Shown: one piece after another, positions 14,691 to 61,280 of the stretch
Numbering within the stretch: position 1 is the first letter of the stretch
Layout of the letters: each line of letters starts with the position of its first letter
Source of the DNA: Sphagnum compactum
Lineage: Eukaryota
Assembly (NCBI GenBank): GCA_965153455.1
Contig: OZ234493.1
Location: forward strand, 3,782,001-3,846,000
Direction: 5' to 3'
DNA: 64,000 nt
Made by a program: the position numbers and the translations under genes
The notes under the pieces: generated by a model
Databases searched by the model: none
Seen by the model: only the letters and a program-made list of their open reading frames with translations
What the model was told of the DNA's origin: nothing

Positions 14691-14989
14691 AGCTTTTGTG
14701 GTGGGGGTTGATTTCTTAGGCTTGCCGACAAATGTATATCAACCCTTAATACTAATGTTTGGAATTATAAAATGAAACTATTCACACCAATCCAAGATGG
14801 TACTGGACATTTGTTCCGCCCATATTAATATTCATGATTAGGAATCAAATGGTGGTGGTGTGTGCAAAGCAAAAAAACTGTTTTCTAACGTCATGTGGTC
14901 AATTACCAACAATTCCAACGTCACAATACATCCATACATTTCTTCTTTGGTAAATATTGTTACCAAATTATGAAAATTAATTGTACCTT

Positions 14990-15300: not shown

Positions 15301-16514
15301 AACATTCATCCTATAGATCATATAATTTTAATGAAATGCATTAAAAAATATGATTGACATTAACCAAACAAATTACATGTTTCATTTAATTTGCTAATGT
15401 TAAATAATTCTAGATCCTTGTTGACACACTAGCCAAATAAGTCATTGTATTTCCATTAAGAACATTATCAAGTGGGTTAAATGAATGTCCATACAAAACA
15501 AATGAATTGTCATTTGTTATTTTGGATGAAGCAACATCCTTGTTCTAGCCCTTCCATGCAAATAAAAGTTTTTATTATAGTTGTGGGGTGTTCTTAAGTC
15601 ACATCTTCATTTTACAATGTTGGCAAGATCATTTTTTCATATTGTTGTGACATGGCTAGTTGGATGGACTAGCAAAGTAGCCTTGCCATGTATAATCTTG
15701 TCACCATAAAATATAAAATAACACATCAAGGTTGCCATGAATTGTAATTGTTTAGATTTCAAGAACTTGCAACACCTTGGGATGGGAGGTCTTGACCACC
15801 TCATTGCCAATTGCGTTGAATCGCATCATGATGGGCTACATTAGTGATTTTTCCTTCTAGCATTGTCACATTAAACATGTCAAAAGTTAACGGTATCCTT
15901 CATTGTCCAACATTATCAATAGGTCCTTGATGTCTAGTTTTTTCTTAAAACTTACAATTCAATGCTAACAACTGGTTAATTAAGCTTATTGGTGTTTTGG
16001 TTGAAACAGTTAATATTAATTACGTGGGTGTCATTCTCTTTAAACAATTAATTATATCTACAACCTCCCCTAATGATAGTTTGTTTTAGGTGGTGGCATT
16101 TGGTGCACCAAATAGATGTTATTGAAATGCTTTGAGTTGATGTTTGTTTCTAAAATATTTAATTTATTCAAACCTTTGTTATTTGTGCATCCTTAGTAAC
16201 TAATGCCCCTACAAGAGGATGAATCAAAGTTGTTAAGTGTAATCTAAATGAATGGGATCATAGAATAGGGTCCTTGACTAGGCCTTAATGTGCCCATACA
16301 TCCACATAGTGGTTACAAACACTTTCAATCGTAAGTGGTATTGGTGACTTTAGAAATTATAATGTTTGGTTTTGTTTACATTTACTACCCATTCAATTAG
16401 GTCAATCAACTCTTTATGAAGGTGGATTTGCCTAGTATTAACAAGTAATTGCAAGTTATGGTGTGCCTAAATGTACATCACATGGTTTTTGTTTGGTATT
16501 GCTAGTGATTAAAA

Positions 16515-22800: not shown

Positions 22801-23749
22801 TTGCCATATTATATTCCTTGTAGATTGCATGGATTTAATTTAAACTTCTCTTTACTAGAAAAAATTCTACCAAGATTCTACCTTCATGCTAGCTTGTGTG
22901 TCAAACTTCAAACTATTTGGATTTTACAAATGGTTTCAACTTTCAATCAAGTTTCAACTTTAAACTTGACCATGTATGCATCATGTGATGTACCACAAGC
23001 TTTTGATATCTAGCAATTGACATCATTCTCATGTTAGTTGTGTTTGTGCATGATTCAATGTGCAATTGGTGCCAATGTTTGTTGTTTGTGTTAATTCAAT
23101 TGTGAAATATATATGTTAGGCATGTTTCAAGTTTCAAGTTTTTCTAACTATCATGAAAACATACTAGAGTTCTAGTTGATACCCCATGGTATCAACTTTT
23201 TCAAAACAAGATTTGTACCAAATCTATATGCAATTTCATGTTTTAGGTTTTGATACCAATTTCATACCTAGTCTAGGCACTTCAGTTACATACCTAGACC
23301 AAATTCATACCTCCCTTCCATGATACTAAACATACTAGGACCAATTTGTTATGTGTAAAATTCCAAGACTCACGCAACACTCTCATGCACCTTGATGTCT
23401 AACACCAAAGACAAGTTCTTTGTTGGCTTGCCCAAATTGAATAAACTTTGCATCCATGTAGGGTTTGAGATCTAATTTTGACTCAAACTAGGAATTAATT
23501 TGTAGGTGATGGTTGGAGACCTGGGTGTATTCTTTAGGTTTTTTTTTTTTTCCGAAATTACCTAATCATGTTATAGGGTTTTATTATTTCTTATGATTTA
23601 GTTTGAACCCATTTTCATTGGAACTGGGACCAATGTGCAAGTAATAGTTGTTGGAGACGTTTGTACTCTAGAGATTGCTTTTTGATCAAATTCAACTTTG
23701 CATTGAAATGACCTAAGCATGTTACATGGATTCCATCCTCTCCCATTAT

Positions 23750-24070
23750 TTTGTTGGCCTTGCTCACCAAGGCAAGGATGTATTGTGTTCGGATTCATTA
23801 TAGAGTATAGTAGCTTAAGGGATTTTGGCCCCTAGGTAATAATAGGTCTATTTTTTATATGAGGATTTTTGAAAGATGATATTTTGGCATGAGTTGAAAC
23901 TTGAGATTAGTTATAGAGTTATAATATCTTCAAGGATTTTGGTTTCTTTTTAGAGGATTTTCTTGAAGATCATATATTTGCATGGTGAAATATTTGAATT
24001 TCCATAACTCTTCTTTTGCCTCAAGATACTTGTTAATGTAAAATGGCAAGGCCACAAATGTGACACACCC
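23750..24070 (-). mobile_element. ~320-bp dispersed non-autonomous element, copy 1
   Basis: Reverse complement of 29397-29717 along its length; ends TTGGCCTTGCTCACCAAGGCAAGG and GGCAAGGCCACAAATGTGACACACCC. Confidence 0.8.
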
Positions 24071-25695
24071 CTTGTTTGAAGTTTAGGGTTTTAGGGTTTA
24101 GAACCTGCTGTAAAGGGCAAGGCTATTTATTCATTACACAAGGAGCTGTTTGGTGGCTGAGAGGGAGAATGACATGGAATAACTTGATAAACCTAAGGAT
24201 GGTGGAATCAAGGGTTTAGGGTTTAGAGATAAGTTGCAAAAGAAGAACATTTAGCCCCTAGGAAATGATATTTCCATTAGTGCCCCTGGCATATTCAGGT
24301 TCATTCATTGATGTAGAAACATTAATGAAGGGTGACAAAATTCATAGCATTTCTTTCATTTTGTGCAGACCATTGTGTTGTTTTGCAGTACTAGTTTTAA
24401 TGGCTGGAAAATGGGCAGCAGCTGTAAACCCTAGTACAAACTTGGACTGTTGTGAGAAACAAGTATTCATTCAATTTCTTAAGTTTTACTCATTGAATTC
24501 AATCAATAGCAGTCAGACTTTTGCTGGAAAAAAAAAACAAAAAAAAACAAAAAATTTAAAAATAAACCAAGTACTGGGTCTCTCCCATGACTGGCAAAAT
24601 TTTCAGCTACAAAACTTTTGATTAATATTTTTTTTCTTTTTTGCTAGGAGAGGAGAAACCCCAGACGGGGAGGGAGGCAGCAGCCCCATCATCATTCAAT
24701 AATTAAATTGGTGAAACTTTTTTTTTTTTTTTTTTTTTGGCTAGATATAAGTAGATAGATTTGGATATTGAATTATAGATTTGGGAAAAAAAAAAAAAAA
24801 AAACTTGGGCAAGTTCTAAACTTTTTTTTTTCTCATCTGATGAGGTTGTTAGTGACTAAAATCATCATGAAAGAAACAAGGTTTATTTCTAGATCTCAAG
24901 ACCCCAACCTCCATTTGAAAGAAAAATTGATGGGTACCCTAAACCCTAAACCCTCATCAAATCCATACTCAAACCTATAAATCAAAGCTTAGATTCAAAT
25001 CCTCATTTCATGCATATATACATGCATAGTATGCTATACCACACCTTACATATGTACCCACCAATGAATTTCCATTTTGGAAGTGATCTGGAGTTACAAT
25101 TCAAGTTTCTTGTTGTTGATGTTCATATGAGCTATACCTAGCTACAAACTTTTGATTGCAAGCAAATTATTGGCAATGCTTTAGTTTCTTGTGGGGAGAG
25201 GGGTGGGGGGGGGGGGGGAGGGGGGGATTTTATAAGGACAGAAAAATAATAGTAATAACAATTAATGCCCTTTTTACTTACTTGTATCCTAATTCAAAAA
25301 ATAAAGATTTTTGCTGTATTGAGCCAAAAACATTAAAAGCCCAATCTAAAATAAGTGATGTATCACTTGTAAAGATGTGAAAGGAACCATAAACCTTGAA
25401 AGAAAAATTAGTGCAAAGTTGATTTTTGCATTGCCACTAGTATAGTGTCCTTGGGAGTGTTTTTTGGAAGGAAAAGATAAAGGAAAAAAAAGAATTAGCA
25501 AAGCTAGTAGTAGAAATGTTGGCTGAGCTAGATTTGTGATTTTGGATGATTTAATGGGTTTAGGTCGATGACCACCAAATGTGAGGCGTGCAATGGATGA
25601 AATCTGAAGAGAATTCGTGGAAAGAGCGAGCGAGGAGTTGCTTGTCGACGGCTAGGGTTCAGGGTTTTAGGGTTTGTTACTAGATTTGTGGTTGC

Positions 25696-27614
<1,919 letters not shown>

Positions 27615-28488
27615 TGTGCCGCAAACGTGGCTGATCTGCTTCGATGATCTGTTGTTCCTCATCAAGCTGTGCAAGCTGCAAGCTGCTGTACACGAAGAAT
27701 GTAGCCCAAAAAAACTCACTTCTCGCCCTAGCTACTAGCTACTGCTCCACCACGTACACTTCAGCTCCTGCTTTACAATATCATTGCAACAGCCACCACA
27801 ACAACAAGCTCACTCATGCATGCACACCTTACTTCCAAAGGGACCAGAGCTTCAAAACAACATCCTGCAGCAGCAGCAGCAGCAAGGATCACCCTCAGAC
27901 TCTCTTTCACAAATGGAATAAGAAGCTGAAAGCTGTGTGCTAATAATGTTACTCAAAAACCAAACTACAAAAGCAGACTTCTTCTTCTGACTTCTTCTTC
28001 TTCTTCTTCCTTGCTAGCAATGTATGTACATAGTGGAGTTTAAAGAAGTTTGGAGGGAAGGGAAGAAGCCAATTGCTGGATGGCCAATATTATTGTCACT
28101 TTCACTGAATGAAAACCAAAGTACCCAACAATATAAATTATTATTTTAATTTTAAAAATACTTGAAATTAATTTAAATTTTTTTAAAGGATCAAATTTTA
28201 AAATACAAAAAAAATACAAATAAATTTTTTATTTTTTTAATTTTGTTTTTCATTAAAAAAACCTACCTAATTAATGTTTTACTAAGTAGTTCTGGTATAC
28301 CTAAAAAGTCGGATGCCAACCAGACCTGAGCAGACACACAGCATGTGGTAAGTTAGTATGAGGAAATACTAAAGAAATTTCCTCCTCCTCATGCCAATAA
28401 ATTGCATTTATGGAACATGCTGCCAAAAATAAATATAAATAAATAAATAAATAAATAAAATAAGGAAGTGATGACAAACCCCCTTGTA

Positions 28489-29396: not shown

Positions 29397-29717
29397 GGGT
29401 GTCACACTGTGGCCTTGCCATTTACTTCAACAAGTCTGTTCAGGCAAAAGAAGAATTATAGAGATTCAAATATTTCACCAATGCAAGAATCTAATCTTCA
29501 AAAAAACCCTCTAAAAGAAACCAAAATCCTTCAAGATATCATATTAACTCTCTATAACTAATCCCAAGTTTCAACACAAGCCAACATATCATCTTTCAAA
29601 AATCCTAATATAAAAATAGATCTACTACGTAGGGGCCAAAAAAATCCTTTAAGCTACAATACTCTATAATGAACCTAAAACACAATATCCTTGCCTTGGT
29701 AGGCAAAGGCCAATAAA
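29397..29717 (+). mobile_element. ~320-bp dispersed non-autonomous element, copy 2
   Basis: GGGTGTCACACTGTGGCCTTGCCATTT...CCTTGCCTTGGTAGGCAAAGGCCAATAAA; four copies in the window. Confidence 0.82.
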
Positions 29718-30918
29718 ATGAATAAAACATCACCCTCATTGACTGGGTGAGTGAGGGTAAGACCGGATATGATATCCGGAGGGTATACAAGAGGCCAGAT
29801 GCTGGCAACCGCACGACCACCGGTACGTTGTAGTAGTTCACTGCCTGCCAGGGGAGGTGAGATGATTCAACCCCCTTTTATGACTCCACCAGCAGCAGCA
29901 GTTTAGGAAGCTGCTCATGACTATTCTTCAATGTAATGTACCATCCAATGCAGAAGATGGGACGCTGCTGCAGCTTGCAGTTTTGATTATCATTATTATT
30001 ATGATTTATGATGATGCTTTGGCGTCGGTTTGCTTGGGGAGCTCACGGGTGCTGCCCGCAAGTCGAAAACTCACGCTGGGCCACCTCAAAACGAGGAGCG
30101 ACGCATTACGACTTGTGGTTGAAATAAACGTCGGAGTAAAGATATTATGGCTAGCACCTTGACAACCACACGCTCTACACACGCGTCCATAAAACACCCA
30201 CTTCTAGTTGCCTCTTCCACACTCACGCACTCACTCACTCACTCACTTCTGTTTTCATTGTGTGGAGCCACCAGCTAGCCAGCCAGCCAGCCAGCCAACC
30301 AACCAGCCCATTAATGGGAGTGAGTCTCTCCTGCAGCAACTGTGCTAACTCACATGGGAGTTTCAAAAGTTTTGTTCTTTCCTGGAAGGAAGGAAGGAAG
30401 GAAGGGAGGAAGCAAGAAGAGGAAGCAGCTGTACAAAGTAAAACTACCCTAGACTTTACCTCTTCTGAAAAGCGTTTTTTTTTTTCCTTTTTTTTCTTTT
30501 TTTAAAATTTAATTTTTTAATAAATTTAATTTTAATTTTAATTTTTTAATAAATTTAATTTTAATTTTTTATTTTTATTAATAAATTTAATTTATAATAT
30601 TATTGCCTTTCTTTTCCAAAAAGAAAAGCCAAAATCGAACCCCCAGAAAAATGTAAAATTTCACCATGTTTCTACACATTGGTACAAGCATGTAGCCAGG
30701 ATAATATTAAAAAAAATTGATCAATTTTTATTGTCATAGCTCTGGTCTATGGCTAAATGTGGCTAAATGTGGCTAAACCCTACCAGGGTGAACCAGCAGC
30801 ACCTACACTGGTGGTACCTTCACCTTCTTGAGTGAGACCTTTTAGTGGCCACATTTCATGCACAAAATGTTAAATTTGTTGGACTCAGAGACCCTGCCTG
30901 ACTTAGTCTTATCATGCT

Positions 30919-36957: not shown

Positions 36958-37417
36958 GCTACCGTGCGTTCTTATGTCACCACAATCACAACACATAACA
37001 TAAAAATACCTTGAATGGTACACCATATCCAAACCAATAGATTGACACACTTGCAACAACGCAAGAATCTAAACCCAAAACATACAAAACGAAAACACTT
37101 ATATAATAAAGAAAACTGCAAAGTAGAAACCATGCTCTAGAATCTCAAATTACCAAAAGTGATTTGAGGTCACATAATATGAGATCATATCCCATGAAAA
37201 ATATCCCGAACCTCATTCACACATGAATTGGTTCGAGATTTACTAATTAGGTTAACTAACCCAGTTTATGTTTAATTAATTAGGATTTAACTAATCAGCT
37301 AAACTAACACACCTAGTAGTTGTTATGCATTCCTATGTTAGCGCCTATAACCATCGTTATCACCACACTCATAACACATAACATAAAAATACCCTAAATG
37401 GTACACCACATCCAAAC
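36958..37417 (-). repeat. 3' terminal repeat block B1-A2-B2 of the retroelement
   Basis: CACCACA.TCA.AACACATAACATAAAAATACC.T.AATGGTACACCA.ATCCAAAC occurs twice, flanking a ~270-bp copy of 49853-50123. PPT-like AGATAGGGGGG (minus strand, ~37420-37430) precedes B1. Confidence 0.88.
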
Positions 37418-37655
37418 GGCCCCCCTATCTAAGGCTGAGATCCCCTTAAACCAAATAATATCATAAAACTATTTATTGAAAATCCACCATGAATGAACAT
37501 TTTGGTTCCAAGGCAAAAGAACCATTAGGCCGGATGCAAATGTGAGCCCCATCGTTAGTCGCCTAGTTGTAATCCTTCAAATCCCCAACTAAATGCAAAT
37601 TACCATGGAAGAAAACTTTAGATTAGTTATACTAAGTGACCCTAAGAACCTAGGT

Positions 37656-37799
37656 CTATTGGGTGCATCAAGGGCAAAACCATTTGCCAATTGCAACTTC
37701 TTCCATTGGTGGCATGAGACATCCCATATGCCAACCTCGAGAACACTTGTCACAAATCAACATAATGGCAGCTCCTAAAGCTTACCCACACAACATACA
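37656..37799 (-). pseudogene. PHD zinc finger at the end of pol
   Basis: CMLCG*ALGAAIMLICDKCSRGWHMGCLMPPMEEVAIGKWFCP*CTQ* fits C4-H-C3 with typical PHD spacing. Confidence 0.9.
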
Positions 37800-38870
37800 T
37801 CATACGCCAACTAGAACCACGGCTAAGGATGGGTCCATTTGGCCATACACTTTGGGAAGATGACATGGTGCGCAATTGCGCACATGCTCCTTCCATGTCT
37901 GACCATCTCGGCCTTCCAACAACAACATTCCATCACGTATAATAACACATCATATAGTCACATCCAAAGTGGTTGGTGTTGTCTACTGCAGGTTAACATA
38001 ATCTCCTTGTTCAAACCTTCAAATCTAAGACCAATAACCACTTCCACATATAGTGCCATAACGCAATGTATCTCGGTGTTGGGCAGTTGCCAAATTTTCC
38101 ATAGCCATGGGCATAACACATCGAAACAAGGTGGCTCATTGCTCACATGCCCGAATCCACACATTAAGATCATCCATGTTGATTACTACGATCGCATCTC
38201 GTCGAATTGAAACTAGTAACTCAGGCTCACGACCAAACAATAATATGAAAGGTGAAAAAGATGAAAGACAAGCTTGTCAATTGAACCTATACCCCATAAC
38301 TAACCATGGTAGCTATAAATCCCAATATGAAGTATGGCCTTTATCAAGACCATACTTTCGCAAACCTTATTTCACCATCTACACCATCCATTCAACTAAC
38401 CCGTTTGCCTCAAGATGGTCTCGTGGATCAATCAATGTTTTTTCACATAGCTTTTGGAATTCCCCACGAAATTTTGTACCTTGGTCAGTGAGAATTTCAA
38501 CTAGAGCCCCAAACCTACTAAGTACCCTGTCCAAAAATGCATACAATGCTCCTTCACTACTACAATCCGACAATGGAACCAACTCTAACCACTTGGAGAA
38601 ATGTTCAATCATAACCAAAACATATTGGTTATGTCAAGGTCAATGGGTCAACAAAATCCAAACTCTATTAATACCTAAGCCCCATAATTGGTAAGGGTTG
38701 TAGGTGAGGTGTAGGTACATTGAAAAATGCCCAAACTCAATTACACACCATACACCTAGAAACAAACTGTTGAACTTCCAATTGCATCCCTCACCACCAG
38801 TATTGTGTTTGGAACAAACTATATGTCGGACAAATCCCAAAATGGCCCAACTCTTCATGAGCATGCCTCA
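37800..38870 (-). pseudogene. DDE integrase (HHCC, rve core and C-terminal region)
   Basis: HEELGHFG...QYWW*GM...CMVC; SLDF; VMIEHFSKWLELVPL; LTDQGTKF; ANGLVE. Confidence 0.9.
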
Positions 38871-39329
38871 CAAGGCTTTCATGTGGTTTTGGGCAAAGCA
38901 CAACCTTCACTTGTCCATCTGCCCACATCTGTAGGAAGGAATTACCTTCCCATTTGAATCATTTGGCCCTATGCACAACACGGTCCCTTTCTTTGGGTGT
39001 TAATCCAGTTGGAACTTCATTTGCCTGCACATATGCAATAATAAGTGCGTCATCATAAATATATAGGGCACCATTACCCTCCAACTCCATGTCCACATAA
39101 TGGGAATCCCCATCATCTACACTAGTTTGAAGTACATCCCCATAACACCCCAATAAGGTACAAAGGTATGCAGAAGCATGCCATCTTGATACCACCTCCA
39201 AATCCACATCACCATGCTAATGAGCCCAAGTGGTATCCTCCGCGTTGCAACTTGGGTTCCGATTCAACCCATCGGCATCTCAATTAACCCTACCAAACCT
39301 GCGAATTATATCAAAGTCATATTCTTATA

Positions 39330-40600
39330 AGATAAGTGCCCACCTGGCCAACTTTCTTGTGAATCAATCTGATTCCATAAGGAATTTCAAAGGCTAGTGA
39401 TCAGTAATCAAAATGAATGGGCTACCATAAATATAACATCAGAATGATGAAACATCCTAAACATTACAAGGCACTCCCCCTCATATGAACTATATTTTGC
39501 CTTCGTTTTGTTGTTAGACTGACTTGCATATGCCACCACAAAATCTTCACCATCATCATCAAGTTGGGTAAGAACGGCTCCTAACCCTAAAGCACCCGAT
39601 CAATGTGTAATTGGAATGGTCGTCTTTGGATGGGTCGCTTCAAAATGGGGGTTGACGAAAGCATGGCTTTTAATTCTTGGAAGGCTTTTTCTTGTGGTTC
39701 ATCCCAAATGAACTCCTGGTCAATCTACGTCAGTCGAATTAAAGGTTTGGTTATGCTACTAAAACCTTTCACAAACCTTTGGTGGTAATTACACAAGCCC
39801 AGAAAAGTTCGTAACTGACTAACATCTATTCGTTGGGGAACTTGTGAAATGGCTTCAACCTTGGCCTTCTGAACCTTCAATCCATTTGGATAAATCATGT
39901 GACCTAGGTACTTTACCTAAGTATGAAAGAACCAGCACTTGCCTAAATGAAGCTTAAGGTTATGTTCCTTAAGTCTTCCAAACACCTTTCGCAAATAATG
40001 CATATGATCTCCTGGGGTCAAGCTAAAAACAATGATGTCATCAATGTAACATTTGGCAAAACCAAAACCCACCAACATTCGATCAACGACCCTTTGAAAT
40101 TTTGCAAGGGCATTTTTCAAACCAAATGGCAAAAACTTCCATTGGTACAAACAATCTTTCCCATGGGGGTCAATTCCCTAAAAAGTTGTCTTGACCATAT
40201 CACCCTCCCTCAATGGCAACTAATGGTAACCAGACCTTAAGTCCAAGGTATTGAAAACCTTGGCCTGCCCAAGGGCATCAAAGGCCTCCTCCGATAAAGG
40301 CATGGCGTATTTGTCTAACCGGGTCCATTTATTCACCAGACGATAATCCCCACACATGCAACGTTCAATCCAATTGCTAAAAATGTCCTTCTTAGTTGGC
40401 ATCACTATTGTTGAAGCATATTCACCCCTAGATAGTTCCACCAAACTAGCATTTAACAACTTTATTGTTTGAGCCTTTGAACCAAGGTTTTTTTCCACCT
40501 CACTAAGCCTATAAGCTCACCTAAAAATTGAATTATCATCCTCCAATATGATTTGGACCTCTTACCCTTTTAACTGACCCAATTCCTTCAAACTAAAGGC
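39330..40600 (-). pseudogene. Reverse transcriptase and RNase H (Ty3/Gypsy type)
   Basis: RCMCGDYRLVN, KYAMPL.EE.FD, FNTLDLRSGYH, YQWKFLPFGLKNA..KFQRVVD, CYIDDIIVFS, LKLHLGKC; RNase H GLGAVLTQLDDDGEDFVVAYAS..N...AKYSSYEGECL. Confidence 0.93.
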
Positions 40601-41009
40601 AAAACATCTAGTGAAATCTCGTATTATTTATCGTGCTTCATGCACCTCATCTCCTGTCATTGTTGGGCCAATTCTTGGTCCCATGTTTTTGCAATTACCT
40701 ATACCTTGGGTTGGGATGATGGAACATCCCCAACACCCGAGGATTGAAAGCATGCCTTGTGATTGCTATGCAAAATGTGGAAAAATGCCATCATGTCTTG
40801 GTGCTCCCACATCACCAATTTCCTGTTCCACACCCATAATGTTGCTTGGCATCCCTGATCCCATAATTGTCAAGGATGTATTTGTCTTGTTGTAACATCA
40901 CCCCCCCTTGCACCGCGATAACATACCCAACAAAAGGTGCAACAAATGAAATATGGGGTGGAATGGGTGGGTGAGATTGGCCAAAACGTAATTGTTTTGC
41001 TAAGACCAA

Positions 41010-41965
41010 GTTGAAAATCCATGTGAGGCAATTGAGATCCATAACTTGCCCCAAAATCCGCTTATGAGCTCCTTCGGAAATGCCTTGCATAGTTGTGGTG
41101 CCGGTGCGGAACCCAGTGGCCCATTCTTTCTCATCTCCATTGGGTTCTTTGGATGAATGGGAGTCCCAAATCATCTTTGGGCCCCCATTCCTAAATGCAT
41201 GAGAATGTGAAAAACTCAAAAATGTTGGTAGGGCTGCTTGTGGAAGGCCAACCCTATTGACCACAACCAAACATGGTCGGTCATCCTGACGAACCATGCA
41301 TGAATGGCATCTTGGATCCAATATGTCATCCACTAAACATGTGGGTGACCTATGAATGAACTCATTTGCTCGTTGGATCACCTTTGGTGGTGCTAGGTTA
41401 GTCCACATCCATCGAAACCAATGAGCTTGTGAACTAATTAAAGTAGCATCCACCTGCACTGGCTTGCTGATCCAAGCCCTAATTTGTTGCCATCCAACCA
41501 AAACAGTTGGCTTAAAATCCCCCAATGGTGGGACATTTTCCAACAAATATGCACATGGGTGCATATGTGACTATTGCAAATGTTGCACAACACAAATTAA
41601 TTCCCAGAATAAATTTGACCTGGGATCGAAAAGTCCATGACCCATACTTGCTTGTGAAAGACCTTGGCATGGCCATCCAAAATGACCAAATCAATTGGCC
41701 CACTCCTTGCCAAATCTAGTGCCCCCAGCAAGGTGATGTTGCTTAGTAAGGAATGTTGATAACCCCATATGGCCGATGTTGGTAACAAATGGGGATACCT
41801 TTGTTGCAACATCATGACATGTCGCATGGAGGCTTGTTTAGCTTGTGGACCCTTCTCCACATAATGGTATTTCCGAACTAAGATGCTCGATTGTAGAACT
41901 ATAGTTAATCCAAAACTAATGACTCCAAATAGCTCAAGTAGGCATATCCCACCCTTGGGAATATC
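41010..41965 (-). pseudogene. C5 cytosine DNA methyltransferase domain inside pol, between protease and RT
   Basis: Motif I LLELFGVISFGL; II YHYVEK; IV PIDLVI-GWPCQGLSQAS (catalytic PCQ, after a frameshift at ~41680); V GLFDPRSNLFWEL; VI YLLENV; VIII VDA...SQAHWFRWMWTNL; IX EPNGDEKEWATGF..GTT; X KRILGQVMD. Confidence 0.9.
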
Positions 41966-42762
41966 CCACTGAATAATCTTAATATCCAATGGGTTTAAAC
42001 CTGAAAGCCCATTACCAAGGTTCATAAGTGATTATGGGCTTGGTGAAAGCAGAATGTGCCAAGCTTGATGAATATAATGACCGATCGATGCCTAAAATCC
42101 AATCAATGTGCCCCATGGTGGCCTAGGATCCAATGGAGAAACTAGAATGATTGGCATCCCATGTGGCCTTGACATCGCCAATTCACCATTTGGAGGTGCA
42201 TCTTGGTCATGGACATTACCTTCCAACAATTCAAGTCCATGTGGAAGGCCTAAAAATTCAGCCAACATAGTTGACTTGTTAGATTTTCATGCTTGCCCCC
42301 CCAATGAATTTCATTGGTAATGAAACCTTGTGGCTAATTCATGTTTACCAGCCTAGATGGTAGTATGCGATTTCCTCCCAAAAATTAATGGTAACCCTTA
42401 GGGGGTACAACACCACACTCCAATCAACACATCATAGAACATAGCATGTGTGACCACTGTGAGGCAACTTTTGTCCCTCTACTCCCGGTTCTACAAGGTG
42501 ACTATACTTGAAAGCATAAATGTTACCGGTGAAAGACGAAGCGAGCGTACTTCTAGATGCTAGATTGCGTTTGTAGTTGAGATTAAATTTCTTTGCCGCC
42601 TATGCATCATTCACAACTTAACATTCATAGCTATATTTTTATTTTATTTTATTTTGTTATTATTATTATTTTTGATCCCCACATTCCCGATCCTAGAACC
42701 TTATACTAAATTGTCATCCCTTTAAACAAACTTTTATGAACTCAACACTTCCTTAAACTTGG

Positions 42763-43305
42763 CTACAACCAGCAATCATTTGAAGAATTGTTTCTCACAC
42801 CCAGATTGTTCAAATTTGGCTTGCTTTAGCTCTTTGAAAAGCTAACTAGTAGACGCACCTTCTTACCAAATCTTAGGATCTGCAGCTAAATAACTAGGAA
42901 ATTATGCTATAAAACCCGAGAGGATTTTGTGGAAGTAGTTGGTCCAACTTGACTGCAGACCACCAGTCACTTGGAGAATTGTTTCTCACACCCAAATTGT
43001 TCAAATTCAGCTTGCTTTAGCTATTTGGAAAGCTAACTAGTAGACGCACCTCCCTACCAAATCTCAGGATCTACAGCTAAATAACTAGGAAACTATGCTA
43101 TAAAACCCGAGAGGATTTTGTGGAAGTAGTTGGTCCAACTTGACTGCAGACCACCAGTCACTTGGAGAATTGTTTCTCACACCCAGATTGTTCAAATTCG
43201 GCTTGCTTTAGCTCTTTGGAAAGCTAACTAGTAGACGCACCTTCCTACCAAATCTCAGGATCTGCAGCTAAATAACTAGGAAGTTATGCTACAAAACCCG
43301 AGAGG
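42763..43305. repeat. Tandem repeat, 191 bp x~2.8, within the solo LTR
   Basis: G.AGAATTGTTTCTCACACCCA at 42782, 42973, 43164. Confidence 0.93.
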
Positions 43306-43543
43306 GTTTATTAACTTTTCCTAGAGTTCCAACTTCCCAATACTATTCTTACTCACCTCCATCCTTCCAAAACTCTTACCAAATCCCCCTTCTACTCTCT
43401 TTCCCTTTCTCCACTCCCAAATTGATCATCCTTTTCCTCCTCAAGAGCTTGTCAGAACTAAAACTCTCGAGATTGAATTAAAGGTCATCTCCCGTCGGAA
43501 AAAAAAGAGCCCCCGAATCACCCAAGTTCGCCTTTTAAAGAAA

Positions 43544-43847
43544 AGGAGAAGGAGAAGGAGAAGGAGAAGAACCCCTTGCTCGGTGGTCAATGGAAGGAGA
43601 AGGAGAAGGTCCCTTTGTTCGGTGGTCAATGGAAGGAGAAGGAGAAGGTCCCTTTGCTCGGTGGTCAATGGAAGGAGAAGGAGAAGGTCCCTTTGTTCGG
43701 TGGTCAATGGAAGGAGAAGGAGAAGGTCCCTTTGCTCGGTGGTCAATGGAAGGAGAAGGAGAAGGTCCCTTTGCTCGGTGGTCAATGGAAGGAGAAGGAG
43801 AAGGTCCCTTTGCTCGGTGGTCAATGGAAGGAGAAGGTTCCTTTGCA
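43544..43847. repeat. Tandem repeat, 39 bp x7, within the solo LTR
   Basis: GGTGGTCAATGGAAGGAGAAGGAGAAGGTCCCTTTG(C/T)TC at 43582, 43621, 43660, 43699, 43738, 43777, 43816. Confidence 0.95.
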
Positions 43848-44064
43848 CTTACTCCCACTTCCCCCCAAGCAAACTTACTTAAACCCTCACTTTTTATCTT
43901 TTGACACAAAGGTTTTACCTTACCATGGTCCTAGGCCATTCTTTACCCACTCCCTTCCTTTCCTTGCGTATAAATTACGATCACATAACTTGATGTCACA
44001 AATCCCCTCCACCTTCATTGCAATTTGATTTTTGTTGAAGATCTTTCCTCTCTTCCTTGCAAGC

Positions 44065-44487
44065 ATGGCGTCGCGCACAGTCACCTCCTACGGGCCCCAA
44101 GCCGCACAAGTGAACGAGGAACCGCCTTCGGAATTGTCTTTAGATTTGACTCTAACGCAGCATCCCCGTGATGAAGAACTCGAACCTCGAGAGGTGCGCG
44201 CTCGTCTCGAAGTTGAACCCCCTCAAGCCTGGTATTATCGCATTTCGCCAAACTCCCGCACCCTGGTGATCTTGTTACAAGTCGATCCTGCTTCCGGTGA
44301 CGAACCCGAAACCGTTTGTGAAGGTTGTTATGAAACCGAAGACACTTCTATCTTTGCTTGGTCTTCAGTTCCCGGCGTTGGACACTATCGTTGGTTGCGC
44401 GGTCCGATTCGTCGCCTACCTCCTAACTGCAAGGCGGACTATCTAGTTCGTACTATTCGACGCATCCTAGACTTCCTACAGCTATGA
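44065..44487 (+). CDS. Intact 140-aa ORF of unknown function carried by the solo LTR
   Basis: ATG in good context (AGCATGGCG); uninterrupted, CpG-rich, protein-like composition; TATAAAT at ~43969 and AATAAA at ~44552. No family recognised. Confidence 0.55.
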   Translation: MASRTVTSYGPQAAQVNEEPPSELSLDLTLTQHPRDEELEPREVRARLEVEPPQAWYYRISPNSRTLVILLQVDPASGDEPETVCEGCYETEDTSIFAWSSVPGVGHYRWLRGPIRRLPPNCKADYLVRTIRRILDFLQL

Positions 44488-45073
44488 ACCATGGCATAGG
44501 CCAGGACTTAACATGTACCCATAGCTCCTTGTCGAGCTTACTCATAATCTAAATAAACGTTTCAGTCCTTATGAGACTCCTATTATCATTGGCACACTAC
44601 CACATCATCTATTAAACCATTAAGCTGATTCGAATTAATCCTTCGTTCCTATGGCTTGAAGATTGCTCTATCTCTATTGGGCCTTTCACTAACCCCCTCC
44701 TCCTGCTTCACAGATTCCCAACATCCTTGCTGCTTGTTAAATACTGATACAAGACTAATGTTTTGTTGCACACCATGAACTCCGGTGTTTGTTTTTCCTT
44801 CCCTCAACTTCCGAGCGATTTCTCGTTCCTTCTTACGCTACTAAGGTTCTAAAACTATAGTTTACCAACTTTTTGCTGAAGAAAAGGACTAACCCAACCA
44901 ATATCGCATTTCGGAAAACAAAACAACCCCCCCACACCCTGTGCGCATTCCTCTACCCTTATTATAACACAAAGTTGTTAAACCCCCCTAAAAACCTCAC
45001 CACACTCGAATATTCCTAACACAATTCTTAAACATTGAGACTATTAGCCATGGCCATGTCGGTATGGCTCACA

Positions 45074-45300
45074 ACCACTGCTCGAGCCTGCACAGTAGTG
45101 TAATCTACAGCTTGTTGGGATTAACCTGGATCGCAATCGCTTGTTTGGTTAACCCTCGTGTTTTTTCTAACCCACCCATGGATATCAAAATGTGATATGG
45201 ACATGGGTCAAGATCAACATTAGTTAATCCAAGACCATCAACAACAACTTTGCCCAACATCAATGGTTGAACACCATAATCAAACAACACCCTAAAGGGT
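45074..45300 (-). pseudogene. Aspartic protease, N-terminal part (C-terminal part at ~42300-42457)
   Basis: RVLFDYGVQPLMLGK (decayed D-S/T-G-A site) ... YDVLIG. Confidence 0.75.
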
Positions 45301-46019
45301 TTATACTATCATGGTGATGCCCCCCTCAACTAAACCATTTCTTCCTCATTATGCACAACCACAACCCCATGAATAACACTTGCTCGATCAATAGTTGGTC
45401 ATGAAGGAAGGTCATGAAGTTTGGCCATAGCCACATGCCAAGATTTAGGTTGAACCTTGGACACCTATGTGTGGTTGGGCTTAGAAATTGGATGGGGAAC
45501 TACAAGAGGCACAAACGTGTCCTCCGACTTAATTTTTGGTGTTCCACCATTTTCACATAATGTTGCCGCCAAGCAAAGCACGATTCCTAGTTGAATACCT
45601 GAAATGGCCAATGTCTCAGTAGAAAATAGTGGCGCCTGACACACTGCTTTGGCCACCCCCATCAAACTTATGGGTGCCTTGGACCTAGGAATGGAATTAG
45701 GCACTTTCCTTGAGATTCTACTTGAAGTTGATGCCCCAATGGGATTGGGAATGGTGTTTGTTAACATAAATGATTATGGGAACTACACTTGACGTTGAGC
45801 CTCACCATGTTAAGGATCCAATCTCTCATTAGCGCCTCATGGTTTTGGCATTCACATACTAGCTCTTGTCACTGGTGCAACTATGGAAATCATCTCACTA
45901 GGATTTGGAACCATAACATGGTTTCCATCATATGTTGCCCATGACTCATGATCTTTTGACATAGGTGACATAATCTCATTTGGTGCCACTGATCCCAAAA
46001 AACCAGCTCCACAAAAGAA

Positions 46020-47400
46020 TTATTGATCCACATCTGACCCATATGATTGGTCATATTCCCTATCTTTAGCCTTCCTTGGCTTAGATGTAGTAGATTTCAC
46101 CTGGGTCGCCATGCTTGTGACTAGGGCCTCCAACCGTGCAAACTTAGCCTCCATGGTGTTGGGTTGGCTTTGAGTTAACTTAGTGGTCGGCCCTTTGTTG
46201 GCTGCACCTTTCCCCTTTTGGCCTTTCCCAGAACCTTGGCCTTTACTAGCATTCATGTTCTATGATTGGCCTTGCCGTAATTTTAGGTGAAATGTGAAAC
46301 AATGATCGGCATCATGCCCATATGCATGATAATGGGAACATGGCAAGTTAGGATTAAGGTTGGAAATTGTGGCTTGTGGTGGATTGGGACAATCCTTCTT
46401 CTTATGAGGCCCACCACATTTCCAACATTTGTCCTCTCCACCTTGTTCTACTAAATAAGATGTGAAACCACCACTTAAATCTAGTGGCACCCTTGGCCTT
46501 AGGTGGTGTAGCTTTAGTGGCCAACTTCATGATTGTTAGTGGGCTAGAAAATTCCTTGGGTTTCCCTTGTTGAACCCAAAGATAACCACTCGTTCCTCCA
46601 CCATGTTCATCTCAATCCTTTTTGACAATTGAAACACATTAGCCAAAGTGGGTTGGGAAAGTTATAATAAAATGGCATCTCGCACCCGATGCTTGAGCTC
46701 TTTGTTCAAGATTCCATACCAAAACTAGACTGCTTGGGCTTCTATGACACCTTGTGTCACCATCATTAACCTACACAATTGTGCATAGGCTTCTCGCAAA
46801 CTCTCATGGGGCTTACGTTGGAAATCTTGCAAACTCCGTAACTTCTCAGTCGTAACCCCTTGATAATTTTGCTGCAATTCACGGAAGAATTCCATAACTA
46901 GGTTAAATACGAGCAATGGACCCCATGTACTAGTGGATGCCCATGCACCACCACCCTTGGTAGTTCCACCACTTCCAATGGTTCCACTTTTAATGGTTCC
47001 ACTACTAGTGGCACTTCCACTCCCACTTGCCAAACTAATGCTAGGAGTTGCCATTGCACCACTTGGGGACATAATTCCCGTAGTGATAGAAACATAATTG
47101 GGAAACCAATATAACCACCACTCCTCAATCTAGATTTCATGGGCACGCCTGAATTCATAATTGTCATCCATAGACGGCCCTTCCAAATGTTGAAACAAAC
47201 CCTTCCATACCATGAAGGGTGTGAATAGCTGGGGATTACACATTTGCTGCATATCACACTAGCTGTTAAATTCCTGGATCAAATCATTTAGCTCAATGGT
47301 GCCAACTGCCCTTGAATATCGATGGGGCCTTTTGGCGGCTCCATACATTTCTTCCATGTCCCACAATAGTGGTGGGGTGACAAACCTTGGAGAAATATTT
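46020..47400 (-). pseudogene. Gag with zinc knuckles
   Basis: FFRELQQNYQG...LRSLQDFQRKPHESLREAYAQL (retrotransposon gag core); CWKCGGPHKKKDC and decayed CSHYHAYGHDADHC knuckles. Confidence 0.8.
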
Positions 47401-49852
47401 GTCACAGAATCTGAAGAATCTCCCCCAGGTGATGATGAAGGTGGTGTGAATGGTTTGAACTACACCTCTCGCCTAGTGAAACCACTAGTAACAGTGTCCT
47501 TGTCCTTAGAATCTTGTGTCACCTCCGTGATGAACCCTAAACCTTAACTTGGGTATCCCCCTTAAAATTCAATTACAAAAAGGTGATACACCTACGATGG
47601 CTCAAACAAGATCTACAAGGATGTTGAACCTATTGCAACTTAACCAAACCCCCATGCATAACATGAACCCAGGGTTGTTGCACCTATATGGCTAGGGCAC
47701 TTGCACCCACAAAAACATTTCATAGGGCTAACAAACTAAGGCACACTATGAACACAGGTGGTCTCCCAGTCACGACAACAAACAATGGGACATCTTGGTG
47801 ATCAAATCCAGACATATTTGCAACTATGCCTCTTAATACAACCTACACCCTAACTGAAACCTAATCAACACGTCCAAGAGAACTAAGAGTCAAGTAGGAC
47901 CTATTTAGTGATCATGATTGAGTGGTAGCCTTATCCAATGCCCGGCCATTAACCACACCAATCACAACCCCTAGGCTCACTGCGACAATAATGACACGCA
48001 TGGGAAGGCACATAAGCTTTCACCTTAAGTTTCACATTAAACAATAAGCACTAATGACCAAGTGGTCAACATGAGAGCATGTGTTCACCTCCAAGTTGTA
48101 GCTGAATGGCACACACCTTGGTAATCCCTTTACCCCTTGAAATCATATGATAATCTGACCAACATGTTAATAGGCAATAGGCACATGCCAACAAACACAA
48201 GTGGAGGTGCACAACTCATGCAACACAAATCTCCACTTTTGTGATCCCCCGCACATGAATCGCAACAAGAATTCAAATCCTCCACATTTGCTGATGGTGC
48301 GGCACTCCACCACCTAAGGTGCAAAAAATATGATTCATTAGCACAATGCTAAATCACCAAATATTTGGTACGAAAAAGTTGGCCACACATTTCGTCTCTT
48401 AGAATAAACCTTCAAAAGTGCATGTCTCCAACTGAGCTGAAAACTCCCACGTTAAAAATGTTCTTCACTAAAAACTAACTGACACAAAAAGCTTTTGATT
48501 CGACTTTTCCGTGGGTGAGAACTGAATTCCCAAAATTGAATGGCAAATAATTCCACAATTGCCAAATCAACCTTTGGCCTTCAAAACTTTTTGTCCCCAA
48601 AACTTTTACAACTTCACATGCATATAATTATCTTCTCCAAGAATTCAATGATGTAGATGGTTTGTCAATCCGACTTCGTATGCAAAAGATATGAATTTCC
48701 AAAAAAATTCAAAATGAAAATATAAATTAATTTTCTGTCCGATCTGAAAAATGGATGAAAAAAACAAAAATAAAAATGTTGGCAGGTTTGGATTGGTGCC
48801 GAACTTGTGCCCTAGGTCCAAGAATTTGGAAAAAATGAAAAACAAAAAAGGAGGTCCAGATTGGACCCCCCCCTTGACCCTTTTTATCCTAAGCCTCCCT
48901 CGAGGTACACGAGCCTCTGCTTGTGCCCAAACCTCGGAGGTTCGGAAGAAAGCTTGAGCTCCCAACAATGTGGTTGGAGCTCAGCTCTCTCCACCGCCAC
49001 CTCTACTTTTTTTTACTTTTTTTCTTCCTTCCTCTTCTTTTCCTTCTCCTTCCTTCCTTCTTCTTCTCCTTGTTTCTTCTCCTTTTCCCTATGGTTGTAT
49101 CTACGAGCTGCAACTCCTCCTCCTTTTTCATTGTTATTTGTTGGCCCTTGCTGCAACTTCAACAAAAGAGGCAATCACGGCGGGGAGCTCCTCTCCCCAC
49201 CTTTTTTTGCTCCCATGTTGCAGCCGCACCTACTCTCCCAACAACAAGATCGACCAAGGGCACCCATCGCCCCAGCTCTCCTTGCGAATTAGCATTGATG
49301 ACCAGGTAGCTAGGAGCTCAAAATATTGGCGATGGTGGTGGTGGTTCATGTCGCCATCGTCACTACTATACCTATAGGATACCAACAAAGAAAGACAAAA
49401 GGAAGGAGAGAGAAAGGGGAGTGAGAAAGAGGGGAAATAAGAAAATAAAAATGAAAAACAACAAAAGGGGGGGCCCTTTGTGATCAAGCTAGGGGCTTTC
49501 CTCTTGTGCTTTTTGAACACCTCCAAATTCTAAGGACTTGGCCCTATTTAGGTTCAACTCCCAAAGGAGTTGTACACAAAAAACAAGTACAAAAACATCA
49601 AAATCATTAAGCGATCTTTGACCATGATCCACGAACAAACGGTATTTGCAGCCTGAGCAAAATTCTTGTGAAACCAACTTGCAATATAAAAACCAAAACA
49701 AACAACACAACACTTACTCCTAACCCAAACTCTTGTGCATAACACACACACAACAAAAAACCAAAAAATAAAATCTCAGTGCTAAAACAATTACAGCCTA
49801 GTTGTAACACAAAAATAATTAGTTGGACTTTTGGTGATTCAAAAGACTAATT

Positions 49853-50123
49853 CACTTGCAATAACGCAAAAATCCAAGCCCAAAACATAGAAAACCAAAA
49901 CACTTGTATAACAAATAAAACTACAAAGTAGAAACCATGTTTTGGAATCTCAAATCACCAAAAGTGATTTGAGGTCACACAAGATGGGATTATATCCCAT
50001 AACAAATATCCCGAACCCCGTTCACACATGAACTAGTTCAAGATTAATTAATTAATTTAACTAACTTAGTTTATTTTTAATTAACTAAAACGTAACTGAA
50101 CAATTAAACTAACACACCTGACA
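49853..50123 (-). repeat. 5' terminal repeat A1 of the retroelement (~270 bp)
   Basis: Collinear with 37048-37318, mostly transition differences; begins TG on the minus strand. Confidence 0.9.
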
Positions 50124-58618: not shown

Positions 58619-58933
58619 TTTATTGGCGTTGCCTACCAAGGCAAGGATATTGTGTTTAGATTCATTATAGAGGATAGTAACTTAAGGGATTTTGGCCCCT
58701 ACATAATAGGTCTATTTTTATATGAGGATTTTTGGAAGATGATATTTTGGCTTGTGTTGAAACTTGAGATTAGTTACAGAGTTATAATATTTTTTGAAGG
58801 ATTTTGGTTTCTTTTAGACGATTTTTTGAAAGATTATATTTTTTGCATGATGAAGTATTTGAGTTTTCACAATTCTTGGTTTGCATTAAGAGACTTTTTA
58901 ACGTAAATGGCAAGGCCACGGTGTGACGCACCC
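58619..58933 (-). mobile_element. ~320-bp dispersed non-autonomous element, copy 3
   Basis: Reverse complement of 29397-29717. Confidence 0.82.
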
Positions 58934-60902
58934 ACCACCCCTTGTTATACAAGCTCTTGAGCTTTCATTGGAGTATGAACCTCATTGGAGGCAACACATA
59001 CCTACAATTCTGTTTTGTTTTCTCATTTGCTTTTCTCCCCCACCCTCCACCCAACACTTTTGAAACTGCTGATCTGATCTCTTCTGATCTCCATGAGAGA
59101 GAGAGAGAGAGATCCTTTATGGTAAGTTAAGATCATAGGGAAATCTCATTCAGGAACAACCACAAGCAAAAGCAACAAGGCACTTTACATTATGAGATAC
59201 ACATGAGCATACTTGCTACTACTACCAAGTAATCATATTATGACCTTATGAAAGGAGTTCCCCCATTATACTCACAACAACTACTATGACACGAAGGTGT
59301 CAAATACATTATCGTGTTTCACTTGGACACATGCCCATCATGCACAAATATACGTTGGTATAATTACTACTAGGTTAAATCATTTTGCTTGTGAGTGAAG
59401 AGGACGCCCATCATTCTCACACAATCACACTAAGGTAAATTATATATTGTAGTAGCTCTTTTTTCAGGTTCAGTGGTAATTAAATTATTGTTGAAAATGT
59501 TATAAATTTTTTTAGAAATTTTTTGTTTGAAATGTCAAATTTTAAGGAAATAATACAAAGGGAGGGGGGGGAAAAAAAAGAAAAAAGGATACGAAACTTG
59601 GTGGAAACCTAGGAGCTTCTTGATCCACCATTGCAAAGCAAGTATCCAATAAATTGAGAGTTCATTTCTCCATCCTATAATTTTGTGGAACAATGTTATG
59701 TCTCTTTATTGCCAAAATTCCGCAAATTGTTGATTCTAACATTGAAGTGGATTTTGAAAAATATAAATATAATTATTTGACACCCGAGTACCAAACCTGA
59801 AAAGTTACTATGGTATTTTAATTTGCTTATACATCATGCTCTTGGGGAAAATATCATGGGGATACTATTACTAGGTAATAATAATCATTCCCTTTTGGAG
59901 AGGAGGAAGTCCCTTCCATTATTCACACAAAAAAACAACCACATGACCGAAGGTGAAGAATTTGTTTTGTTTTGTTTTGTTTTGCTTCTATATCATGGCT
60001 ATTCATGAGCTATTGAGCTTTGAAGAAATGGAACTAGTATACATATATATATATTCTTCCTATTGAATGGGGTTGCATACAATTCTTCAGAATATAATTC
60101 TTTGGAATGAATCTAGTACTCTCTTGCCAATCAATGAATGCCACCAACTTATTATGAGAGCTACTCCTTGAACAAACCCATAAAGAAGGGTTGTGTTTGG
60201 TAAATATGTAAAGAGGTTGGGGGGAAAGAAAGGGGGTGGGAGGGGGGGAAGGGGGGTTTTTGAGTTGGGTTGTAGGCCCAAAGTTAGGGAGTTTTTAGTG
60301 TTTTCTAATTGATGGGTTTAGGGTTTTAGGGTTTTAGGGTTTAAGTTTGTAGTGTTTTTTTGTAATTTTTAATGTAAACCCTTCACCAACTGGCCAGAGT
60401 GAAGAACCAGCATTCACCTAGATTGGTAAGTAAGTGCCCTTCACCTTCTTGAGTGAAGAAGCCTCTTTAGACCCATCTCCTCTACAAACCCACAGGAGAG
60501 TAAAAATGGCCTGTCTAGGAGGTACTATATTTTGGATGAATGATAGGAGTCAGATAGAATGAAACTCTTTGTTTGGGTCTGTGAAATATGCCCCCCAAAG
60601 ATGGATGATATAACTATGGCTACCTGATGACTGACAAAGAGCAATGACAATGAGTGAGTGAGTGAGTACCTATGTACTAACTTCTTTATAAGTAGACCAA
60701 GTTGGTTGATAATGAGTGTGGGGGGTTCCCACTAGCCAAACTTAATAGTCTACTTGGTCTGACATGTTGACCCTTGTGAACCTTCTAGAATCACTAGTTT
60801 TTTCAACTTTTCTCAAGGTTTTTTTTTTTATAAAATTATTATTATTATTATTTTAAATTTAATTTTTACATTTTTTTAAAATTTAAAATTGTCAAAAAAC
60901 AA

Positions 60903-61280
60903 GGGATGTGTCACACTATGGCCTTGCCATTTTTACATTTAAAAGTATCTTAAGGCAAAAGAAGAATTATGGAAAACTCAAAATATATTTCACCCATGCA
61001 AAAATATAATCTTCAGAAAGAATCATCTAAAATGAAACCAAAAAGCCTTCAAGATATTATAACTCTCTAACTAATCTCAAGTTTTAACACAAGCCAAAAT
61101 ATCATCTTTTCCAAAATCCTCATATAAAAAAATTAGACCTATTATTATTATTATTGTTATTATTATTATTATTATTATTATTTACCTAGCTAGGGGGGGC
61201 CAAACTCCCTTAAGCTACTATACTCTATAATGAAACTAAACACAATATCCTTGCCTACCAAGGTAGGCAAGGCCAATAAA
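60903..61280 (+). mobile_element. ~320-bp dispersed non-autonomous element, copy 4, expanded by a (TTA)n microsatellite at 61141-61183
   Basis: Collinear with 29397-29717. Confidence 0.82.

Follow-up and report, generated by a model that had tools for sequence, protein, structure and literature searches.

A probable Ty3/gypsy-type retrotransposon relic with a Dnmt3-like cytosine methyltransferase domain in moss DNA

Organization and decay of the element

The DNA analysed here is a stretch of 64,000 nucleotides filed under Sphagnum compactum (contig OZ234493.1, positions 3,782,001 to 3,846,000 of the forward strand), which in its full length is called the window. Its minus strand carries a broken C5 cytosine methyltransferase (MTase) domain that is colinear with gag and aspartic protease (PR) sequences upstream and with reverse transcriptase (RT), RNase H (RH), integrase (INT) and PHD finger sequences downstream, as revealed by tblastn with related proteins and by Pfam analysis of the read-through pieces (Table 1). 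The order PR-RT-RNase H-DDE integrase on one strand, with gag upstream, is the one by which Ty3/gypsy elements are recognized. The region is very probably the MTase domain of a defunct Ty3/gypsy-type retrotransposon copy with the organization gag-PR-Dnmt3-type DNA methyltransferase (DNMT)-RT-RNase H-DDE integrase-PHD and with repeats laid out as A-coding-B-A-B. By the same reading it belongs to a large green-lineage DNMT3-gypsy superfamily, of the kind described as KnitGypsy-Dnmt3 from Klebsormidium nitens.

A preliminary description, made from the letters of the sequence, had placed an ordered set of C5-MTase motifs at 41010-41965, on the pol strand between protease and RT. All of the listed motifs were found within these coordinates and in the same order, the full domain being slightly wider, and tblastn and Pfam confirmed that it sits between PR and RT on the same strand. 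Translation of 40600-42400 in the three minus-strand frames showed that the MTase reading is split across two of them, an N-terminal part (41998-41681) that holds motif I and a C-terminal part (41678-40992) that runs from GWPCQ to ILGQVMD. The three raw ORF (open reading frame) pieces taken separately had no Pfam match at E<=1. Read through with X at the stop, 40815-41690 matched PF00145 (DNA_methylase) with an E-value of 2.7e-7 and 30.8 bits against a cutoff of 22, a match that covers motifs IV-VI only; the search of a repaired reading with an MTase profile, which had been suggested as a check, was thus significant.

With 40992-41690 as the query, 21 of the 21 listed relatives bear PF00145 (E 1.8e-70 to 3.3e-37, 38-52% identity, 97-98% coverage), and an exhaustive HMMER scan of representative proteins with the same segment returned 853 proteins at E<=1e-3, of which 418 reach E<=1e-10 and 24 reach E<=1e-30. 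A family profile was built from 18 relatives that are 32-45% identical and share 27 invariant columns, the PCQ and ENV motifs among them. Against this profile the full domain, with X at both breaks, scored 347 bits over profile positions 60-392 of 456, and the window copy retains 24 of the 27 invariant positions.

The remaining coding parts were mapped with individual relatives by tblastn. Residues 2-601 of the Marchantia protein P0250 align to 47183-45129 at 32% identity, residues 84-626 of a second Marchantia protein (P0253) align to 47360-45120, and the PR portions of P0005, P0028 and P0245 align to 45126-45434. A CCHC knuckle motif, CWKCGGPHKKKDC, lies within the ORF at 46260-46526; Pfam matched neither the gag-PR piece nor the piece preceding the DNMT. 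On the other side of the DNMT, residues 478-833 of P0021 cover the RT at 40% identity, and residues 2013-2346 of P0245 align to 38633-37659 at 46% identity; the coordinates of the integrase subdomains in Table 1 were computed from the Pfam-matched residues. A DIRS/Ngaro-type identity for the element was considered and ruled out, as Pfam scans of the window pieces and of 15 relatives detect rve and Integrase_H2C2 but no phage-integrase domain.

The 280-nt A pair is the only long direct repeat around the element. Its two copies differ at 46 of 280 sites, 34 of them by transitions, which corresponds to a Kimura two-parameter (K2P) distance of 0.19, and 58-nt B copies flank the downstream A on both sides, so that the layout is A-coding-B-A-B. 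Two related metagenome loci have the same layout: L003, with A at 159-439 and 8271-8550 and B at 8092-8269 and 8551-8728, and L011, with A at 733-1022 and 11357-11650 and B at 11183-11355 and 11652-11824. In both loci the B repeats are about 175 nt, longer than the 58 nt of the window, a G-run directly precedes B1, and TG and CA form the start of A and the end of B, respectively. Plain paired long terminal repeats (LTRs) with a target-site duplication were not what we found, since the repeats run A...B-A-B, and by eye no tRNA primer-binding site was recognized in the window, L003 or L011. An element with a DDE integrase and gypsy composition is thereby joined to DIRS/Ngaro-like A-coding-B-A-B repeats.

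That this copy is inactivated by stops and a frameshift had also been proposed, and it holds: the window copy is a dead relic with many stops, several frame changes, a 2.6-kb nested insertion and A repeats that are 16% diverged. The gag-PR region has 18 in-frame stops in 747 codons and the RT has 7 in 359; the RNase H-integrase-PHD pieces have 13 in 289 and 12 in 325, and the DNMT has 1 in 335. The single DNMT stop compares with 56 stops in 1917 codons of all other coding pieces, a difference that may be due to chance or to undetected frameshifts elsewhere. Later exaptation of the DNMT domain, which fewer stops might indicate, was rejected because the difference from RT is small, a frameshift is present and three invariant residues are lost. 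The substitution rate in mosses is near 1e-8 per site per year; with this rate, the divergence of the A repeats (K2P 0.19) would date the element to the order of ten million years.

The block between PR and DNMT is recognized as a nested insertion because the closest uninterrupted relatives, P0001 and P0022, have 11 residues where the window has 2.65 kb; residues 168 and 180 of P0001 align by tblastn to 45114 and 42460, respectively. Tandem arrays of 191 nt x3 (42768-43340) and 39 nt x7 (43515-43876) lie inside it, together with a 152-aa plus-strand ORF (44029-44487). Contigs assembled from DNA runs show depth spikes and many loose ends at 42457-42473, where contigs of other copies break off, and the edge near 42458 is, by its depth spike, part of a very high-copy repeat. 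At the 5' end of the element about 2.4 kb (47461-49839) separates repeat A1 from the start of gag, with low-complexity plus-strand ORFs at 48816-49377; this stretch is longer than the matching leader in L003 and may contain further insertions.

Table 1. Features of the element and of other parts of the window (positions are those of the window).
Feature	Position	Strand	Evidence or remark
Whole element, about 13 kb	36977-50119	minus
Repeat A1, 5' end of element	49840-50119	minus	234/280 positions (84%) identical to A2, ungapped
gag (CCHC zinc knuckle) and aspartic protease	45120-47360	minus	18 in-frame stops
Nested insertion between protease and DNMT, about 2.6 kb of unrelated repeats	42459-45113		tblastn gap
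Linker	41999-42460	minus
Dnmt3-type C5 cytosine methyltransferase domain, broken	40992-41998	minus	PF00145, family profile, motifs, relatives
Motif I, ELFGVISFG	41909-41935	minus	translation and motif mapping
Frameshift just before motif IV	41679-41680	minus	frame switches between 41681 and 41678 in every tblastn alignment and in the translations
Motif IV, GWPCQ	41664-41678	minus	translation and motif mapping
DPRSNLFWE	41601-41627	minus	translation and motif mapping
In-frame TAG between motifs IV/V and VI	41571-41573	minus	translation
Motif VI, ENV	41532-41540	minus	translation and motif mapping
Motif VIII, AHWFRWMWTNL	41394-41426	minus	translation and motif mapping
Motif IX, DEKEWATGF	41109-41135	minus	translation and motif mapping
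Motif X, ILGQVMD	41037-41057	minus	translation and motif mapping
Reverse transcriptase	39599-40675	minus	Pfam RVT_1 E 2.5e-23; 7 in-frame stops; frame differs from C-terminal part of DNMT
RNase H region	38881-39596	minus	Pfam RT_RNaseH E 1e-8, RT_RNaseH_2 E 6.2e-6; two frame changes (tblastn)
Integrase H2C2 zinc domain	38740-38880	minus	Pfam Integrase_H2C2 E 7.8e-13
Integrase DDE core	38424-38624	minus	Pfam rve E 1.1e-7
PHD finger, integrase C-terminus	37665-37799	minus	Pfam PHD E 1.7e-8
Repeat B1	37360-37417	minus	53/58 positions (91%) identical to B2; preceded by a G-rich polypurine-like run
Repeat A2	37035-37314	minus	pairs with A1; directly abuts B2
Repeat B2, 3' end of element	36977-37034	minus	abuts A2, as in L003 and L011
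Second, more decayed gag-PR-DNMT relic of the same superfamily	13777-15944	minus	colinear tblastn matches of P0028 and P0005
Class III peroxidase gene, at least three exons	25696-27731	minus

A Dnmt3-like domain and its family

The enzyme encoded by this family is Dnmt3-like, as judged from the family profile and from a predicted fold, both of which are closest to DNMT3A, DNMT3B and DNMT3C. When the 18-relative profile was run against solved structures, DNMT3A (8.8e-21), DNMT3C (1.4e-19) and DNMT3B (1.1e-18) gave the best matches, followed more weakly by tobacco DRM (4e-13), M.HhaI (4.7e-9), DRM2 (4.8e-9) and DNMT2 (about 2e-3), and no chain named DNMT1 was among the 56 profile matches. The AlphaFold model of the relative P0059 has a pLDDT of 91.5 and a pTM of 0.90; in a Foldseek search with this model the listed top ranks are occupied only by DNMT3A, DNMT3B and DNMT3C chains, the best being 6w89_A (E 2.3e-20, TM 0.80, 24% identity). 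A phmmer search of the PDB with a single broken piece of the window copy returned nothing better than noise at E>=0.3 (HaeIII methylase, 0.41).

The element domain shares with the cellular DNMT3A, DNMT3B and DNMT3C the motif order I-IV-VI-VIII-IX-X and a Dnmt3-like motif VIII (AH.R..W.NL). It differs from them in being only 22-24% identical in the fold alignments, in coming without PWWP or ADD domains, and in being embedded in a retroelement polyprotein, in which the integrase instead bears a PHD finger. Plant DRM enzymes are likewise Dnmt3-derived de novo methyltransferases; however, the motifs of DRM are circularly rearranged, whereas the order in the element DNMT is canonical, and the profile match to DRM (4e-13 and 4.8e-9) is much weaker and partial.

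A total of 165 sequences with a complete domain was reduced to 139 by removing those more than 80% identical, that is, to 138 relatives apart from the window copy. Their DNMT lies before the RT (PR-DNMT-RT) in 31 cases and between RNase H and integrase in 83, the other 24 being DNMT-only fragments. The reading frame stops just after the DNMT in the window copy and in 22 of the 138 relatives, and it is fused to the RT in nine. Among 15 relatives analysed with Pfam, some are gag-PR-DNMT proteins and others DNMT-RT-RH-INT proteins, and one, P0245 (2358 aa), runs through PR-DNMT-RT-RH-INT-PHD without interruption. The RT-RNase H-DNMT-integrase-PHD architecture is thus that of the majority of the superfamily (83/138; for example P0249, P0251, P0256, P0142 and L008) and includes the named chlorophytes. 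By phmmer comparison with the PHD segment of P0245, most relatives with an integrase, whichever of the two architectures they have, carry a PHD finger at its end in place of a chromodomain.

Since 31 of the 138 relatives share the PR-DNMT-RT order and a further 83 have the domain between RNase H and integrase, it is a retrotransposon-borne domain and not a one-off insertion of a host gene. The preliminary description had named absence of the domain from other family members as a finding that would speak against it, and the opposite was observed. Apart from the nested insertion at 42459-45113, which stands immediately upstream of the domain, we found nothing to support the idea of a single insertion of a host DNMT3 gene or pseudogene into this gypsy copy. 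The PR-DNMT junction recurs in the 31 relatives, uninterrupted ORFs included, P0001 and P0022 are colinear with the window across PR and DNMT, a second relic in the window also carries the domain, and many copies of the DNMT region at >=90% identity occur in DNA runs; we regard a single landing as extremely improbable.

Named members of the PR-DNMT group come from Marchantia polymorpha (three proteins), Calypogeia fissa and Closterium NIES-68 and NIES-53, and those of the second architecture from Chlamydomonas eustigma, Cymbomonas tetramitiformis and Scenedesmus sp.; among the named matches (70 matches and 20 clusters looked up) there was no vascular plant or Klebsormidium protein. In a protein-cluster atlas the top clusters were generic PF00145 clusters, mostly viral, and one cluster that is 100% eukaryotic and commonest in Streptophyta is noted as a lead only. 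One member, P0003 (HEY9806811.1), is annotated as a DNA cytosine methyltransferase of a 'Candidatus Obscuribacterales' metagenome-assembled genome (MAG) and belongs to the retrotransposon family; a 1359-aa gag-PR-DNMT protein falls into its 90% cluster, and wrong binning of plant DNA with a bacterial genome is the probable explanation.

Phylogenetic analysis, with supports of the SH type only, divides the family by architecture. A FastTree tree of 143 rows, with four bacterial or phage-like methyltransferases as outgroups, gave this split a local support of 89-91, the RT-RNase H-DNMT-INT-PHD type being the sister group of the PR-DNMT-RT type, and a quick IQ-TREE analysis of 51 rows gave it an SH-aLRT of 98. 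P0001, P0234 and the three Marchantia proteins share with the window copy a clade (SH-aLRT 99) which the partial Calypogeia protein joins to make seven rows (the window, three Marchantia, one Calypogeia and two metagenome sequences; SH-aLRT 99). Closterium belongs to the same PR-DNMT architecture group and lies outside this moss-liverwort clade.

Copies, host and origin of the family

Besides the element described above, the window holds a second gag-PR-DNMT relic, with gag at 15813-15944, PR at 14972-15571 and DNMT at 14083-14460 (E 1.3e-8 to 3.6e-9 for the DNMT). Motifs IV and VIII are decayed in its translation, and its DNMT remnant has no Pfam match. It has no nucleotide similarity to the first copy, and the metagenome proteins P0005 and P0028 resemble it more than that copy does. 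For the first copy, contigs from DNA runs of three organisms matched 37600-42700 with 1013, 1122 and 1944 pieces at >=90% identity, mostly in the 90-95% band, and the element family is therefore multicopy. Pieces from the second organism differ from the window by about 1-3%, mostly by transitions, which would fit either the same old insertion or a copy very similar to it. Some copies of the third organism differ in length at the site of the DNMT frameshift, and the frameshift is thus not common to the family. No RNA run was listed as containing the stretch, and about 12% of one RNA run with the same species label yielded 0 reads on it, which does not count as a test of expression. Runs labelled 'moss metagenome' had a share of only 0.13, from which nothing is concluded.

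A dispersed repeat of about 320 nt occurs in both orientations in the window (23749-24076, 29399-29718, 58619-58933 and 60893-61280), its copies being 72-85% identical. The same repeat is found in the flanks of the metagenome loci L001 and L003 at 81-85% identity, the level seen between the window's own copies, and the L001 and L003 contigs are therefore probably Sphagnum-like DNA. It follows that several divergent lineages of the element (the two window copies, L001 and L003) probably share one kind of Sphagnum-like genome.

The host, as its peroxidase sequence indicates, is a Sphagnum-like moss: the peroxidase exon at 25699-26148 has its two best matches in a JGI protein (94% identity) and a Sphagnum compactum protein (85%), after which identity falls to 41%. 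Algal or other contaminant DNA as the source of the stretch is scarcely credible, even though most relatives come from metagenomes and P0003 is filed under a bacterial MAG. The peroxidase gene, 85-94% identical to its best matches, lies 10 kb from the element in the same contiguous window; the stretch is present in DNA runs of one species across several studies and, at a lower share and with 1-3% divergence, in a second species; and the window's dispersed repeat flanks related elements in L001 and L003.

How the family reached mosses and liverworts is a separate question. Horizontal transfer from algae, rather than vertical descent from a streptophyte ancestor, would suit the patchy distribution of hosts (bryophytes, Closterium and several chlorophytes, with no vascular plant among the named matches) and the close contact of mosses with algae. 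However, the moss and liverwort copies form one clade apart from Closterium and the chlorophytes, as vertical descent predicts, and the two window copies, L001 and L003 represent several divergent lineages in Sphagnum-like DNA. Named genomes are thinly sampled behind this patchiness, since most matches are metagenome proteins without a species name. We consider transfer unlikely.

Comparison with known elements and possible role

KnitGypsy-Dnmt3 of K. nitens is described in the accessible text of de Mendoza et al. 2018 (PMC5890265) as a non-rearranged Dnmt3 inside Pol, with Gypsy domain composition and DIRS-like A-coding-B-A-B repeats; the legends of Fig. 1e and Fig. 4c of that paper give 'A-coding region-B-A-B' as the DIRS arrangement. 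The window element resembles it, by this description only, in its non-rearranged Dnmt3-type domain within a polyprotein of gypsy composition, its A-coding-B-A-B repeats and its streptophyte host. It differs in its embryophyte host, a Sphagnum-like moss, in having liverwort relatives, and in that the window copy is dead. SymbioDIRS-Dnmt3 of Symbiodinium, as far as the same text describes it, also has a Dnmt3-type domain in Pol, A-coding-B-A-B repeats and a domain order that varies within the family; it is, however, a DIRS element with a tyrosine recombinase and dinoflagellate hosts, whereas the window element has a DDE integrase (rve and Integrase_H2C2) and a gypsy-type protease. Chromoviruses, too, are gypsy elements whose integrase ends in a chromatin-reader module; in contrast to them, the window element has a PHD finger and not a chromodomain, repeats that are not plain LTRs, and a DNMT.

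We conclude that this is a known kind of element whose host range is extended to land plants. The preliminary description was aware of no characterization of LTR-borne DNMTs in embryophytes; in agreement with that, full-text literature searches returned no embryophyte report, though the supplements of PMC5890265 and PMC12344493 may list bryophyte sequences. Passages of later papers mention 'streptophytes (Gypsy-DNMT3)' with reference to the 2018 work, whose authors, in the text available, read the K. nitens element as an acquisition in that lineage. It was also put forward that a streptophyte-algal LTR-DNMT lineage survived into bryophytes. The part of this that stands is a land-plant element with a Dnmt3-type domain and A-coding-B-A-B repeats, in a clade with liverwort copies and in one group with Closterium; common descent with KnitGypsy-Dnmt3 is the part that we infer.

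Capture of DNMTs by retroelements is recurrent, as stated in the consulted parts of PMC5890265 and of a preprint (10.64898/2026.05.21.726589), and bryophyte gypsy elements could have captured a host DNMT3 independently of the Klebsormidium elements, with a resemblance that is convergent. Two domain orders exist within the superfamily, and the comparison with the K. nitens element is one of descriptions, both of which fit such an origin. Yet the unusual A-coding-B-A-B layout on an integrase-bearing gypsy element is common to the window and, according to the 2018 legend, to K. nitens; the streptophyte alga Closterium stands in the same PR-DNMT group as the bryophyte copies; and family members are 30-54% identical to one another against 22-24% to DNMT3A/B in the fold alignments. 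Independent capture therefore appears to us decidedly improbable.

Several points weigh against the explanation given here for the region. The copy has lost three of the 27 invariant residues (the motif I glycine, a second glycine ahead of motif VIII, and the first arginine within motif VIII), its B2 is recognizable across 58 nt only, and a target-site duplication was not recognized by eye in the window, L003 or L011. Within the window, the one part of its genome covered, no uninterrupted member was seen, such members being known from the proteins of relatives, and the assignment of the host draws on one exon. The link to KnitGypsy-Dnmt3 draws on type, position in Pol and repeat layout. Besides family members the trees contain only bacterial or phage-like methyltransferases, and a common origin of both architectures that leaves out host DNMT3 remains an inference. 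Finally, the K. nitens domain gave no methylation in a yeast assay, a result that its authors call inconclusive in the available text of PMC5890265. The same text reports that SymbioDIRS-Dnmt3 domains of Symbiodinium methylate CG de novo in yeast.

For intact elements the following route may be envisaged. The DNMT would be made as part of the polyprotein and then be released by the element's own protease; the released enzyme would methylate cytosines de novo, most likely in CG as Dnmt3 enzymes do, and its target would be the new cDNA or fresh insertion of the element itself. The PHD finger of the integrase would read histone tails and steer integration. The net effect would be a self-imposed methylated state that damps transcription of the element and its cost to the host. 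We offer this self-methylation role as a possibility that is somewhat doubtful; alternatively, the enzyme might act on loci of the host or of competitors, or mimic gene-body methylation.

Retrotransposons that bear the very class of enzyme used by their hosts to silence them pose an arms-race puzzle, and the only plant-lineage example that we found in print is from one charophyte alga. The moss copy and its liverwort, Closterium and chlorophyte relatives push the origin much deeper and suggest that the family is much older and wider than described. A tentative view, to which we give slightly less than even chances, is that DNMT3-gypsy elements form an ancient superfamily that spans the Viridiplantae, with the order PR-DNMT-RT in streptophytes and RT-RH-DNMT-INT-PHD in chlorophytes. 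On this view all of them have a de novo MTase, a PHD finger and A-B-A-B repeats, and they entered land plants by descent and remained active in mosses and liverworts for a time that allowed many copies to accumulate. Transposon domains can go under the annotation 'hypothetical protein' or 'DNA cytosine methyltransferase' in the genomes of bryophytes, and even in that of a bacterial MAG, and DNMT gene counts in plant genomes need checking for them. The finding also places the system in experimentally tractable land plants such as Marchantia. If the superfamily is as old as proposed here, transposon-encoded DNMT3 activity would have been part of the early land-plant methylation landscape.

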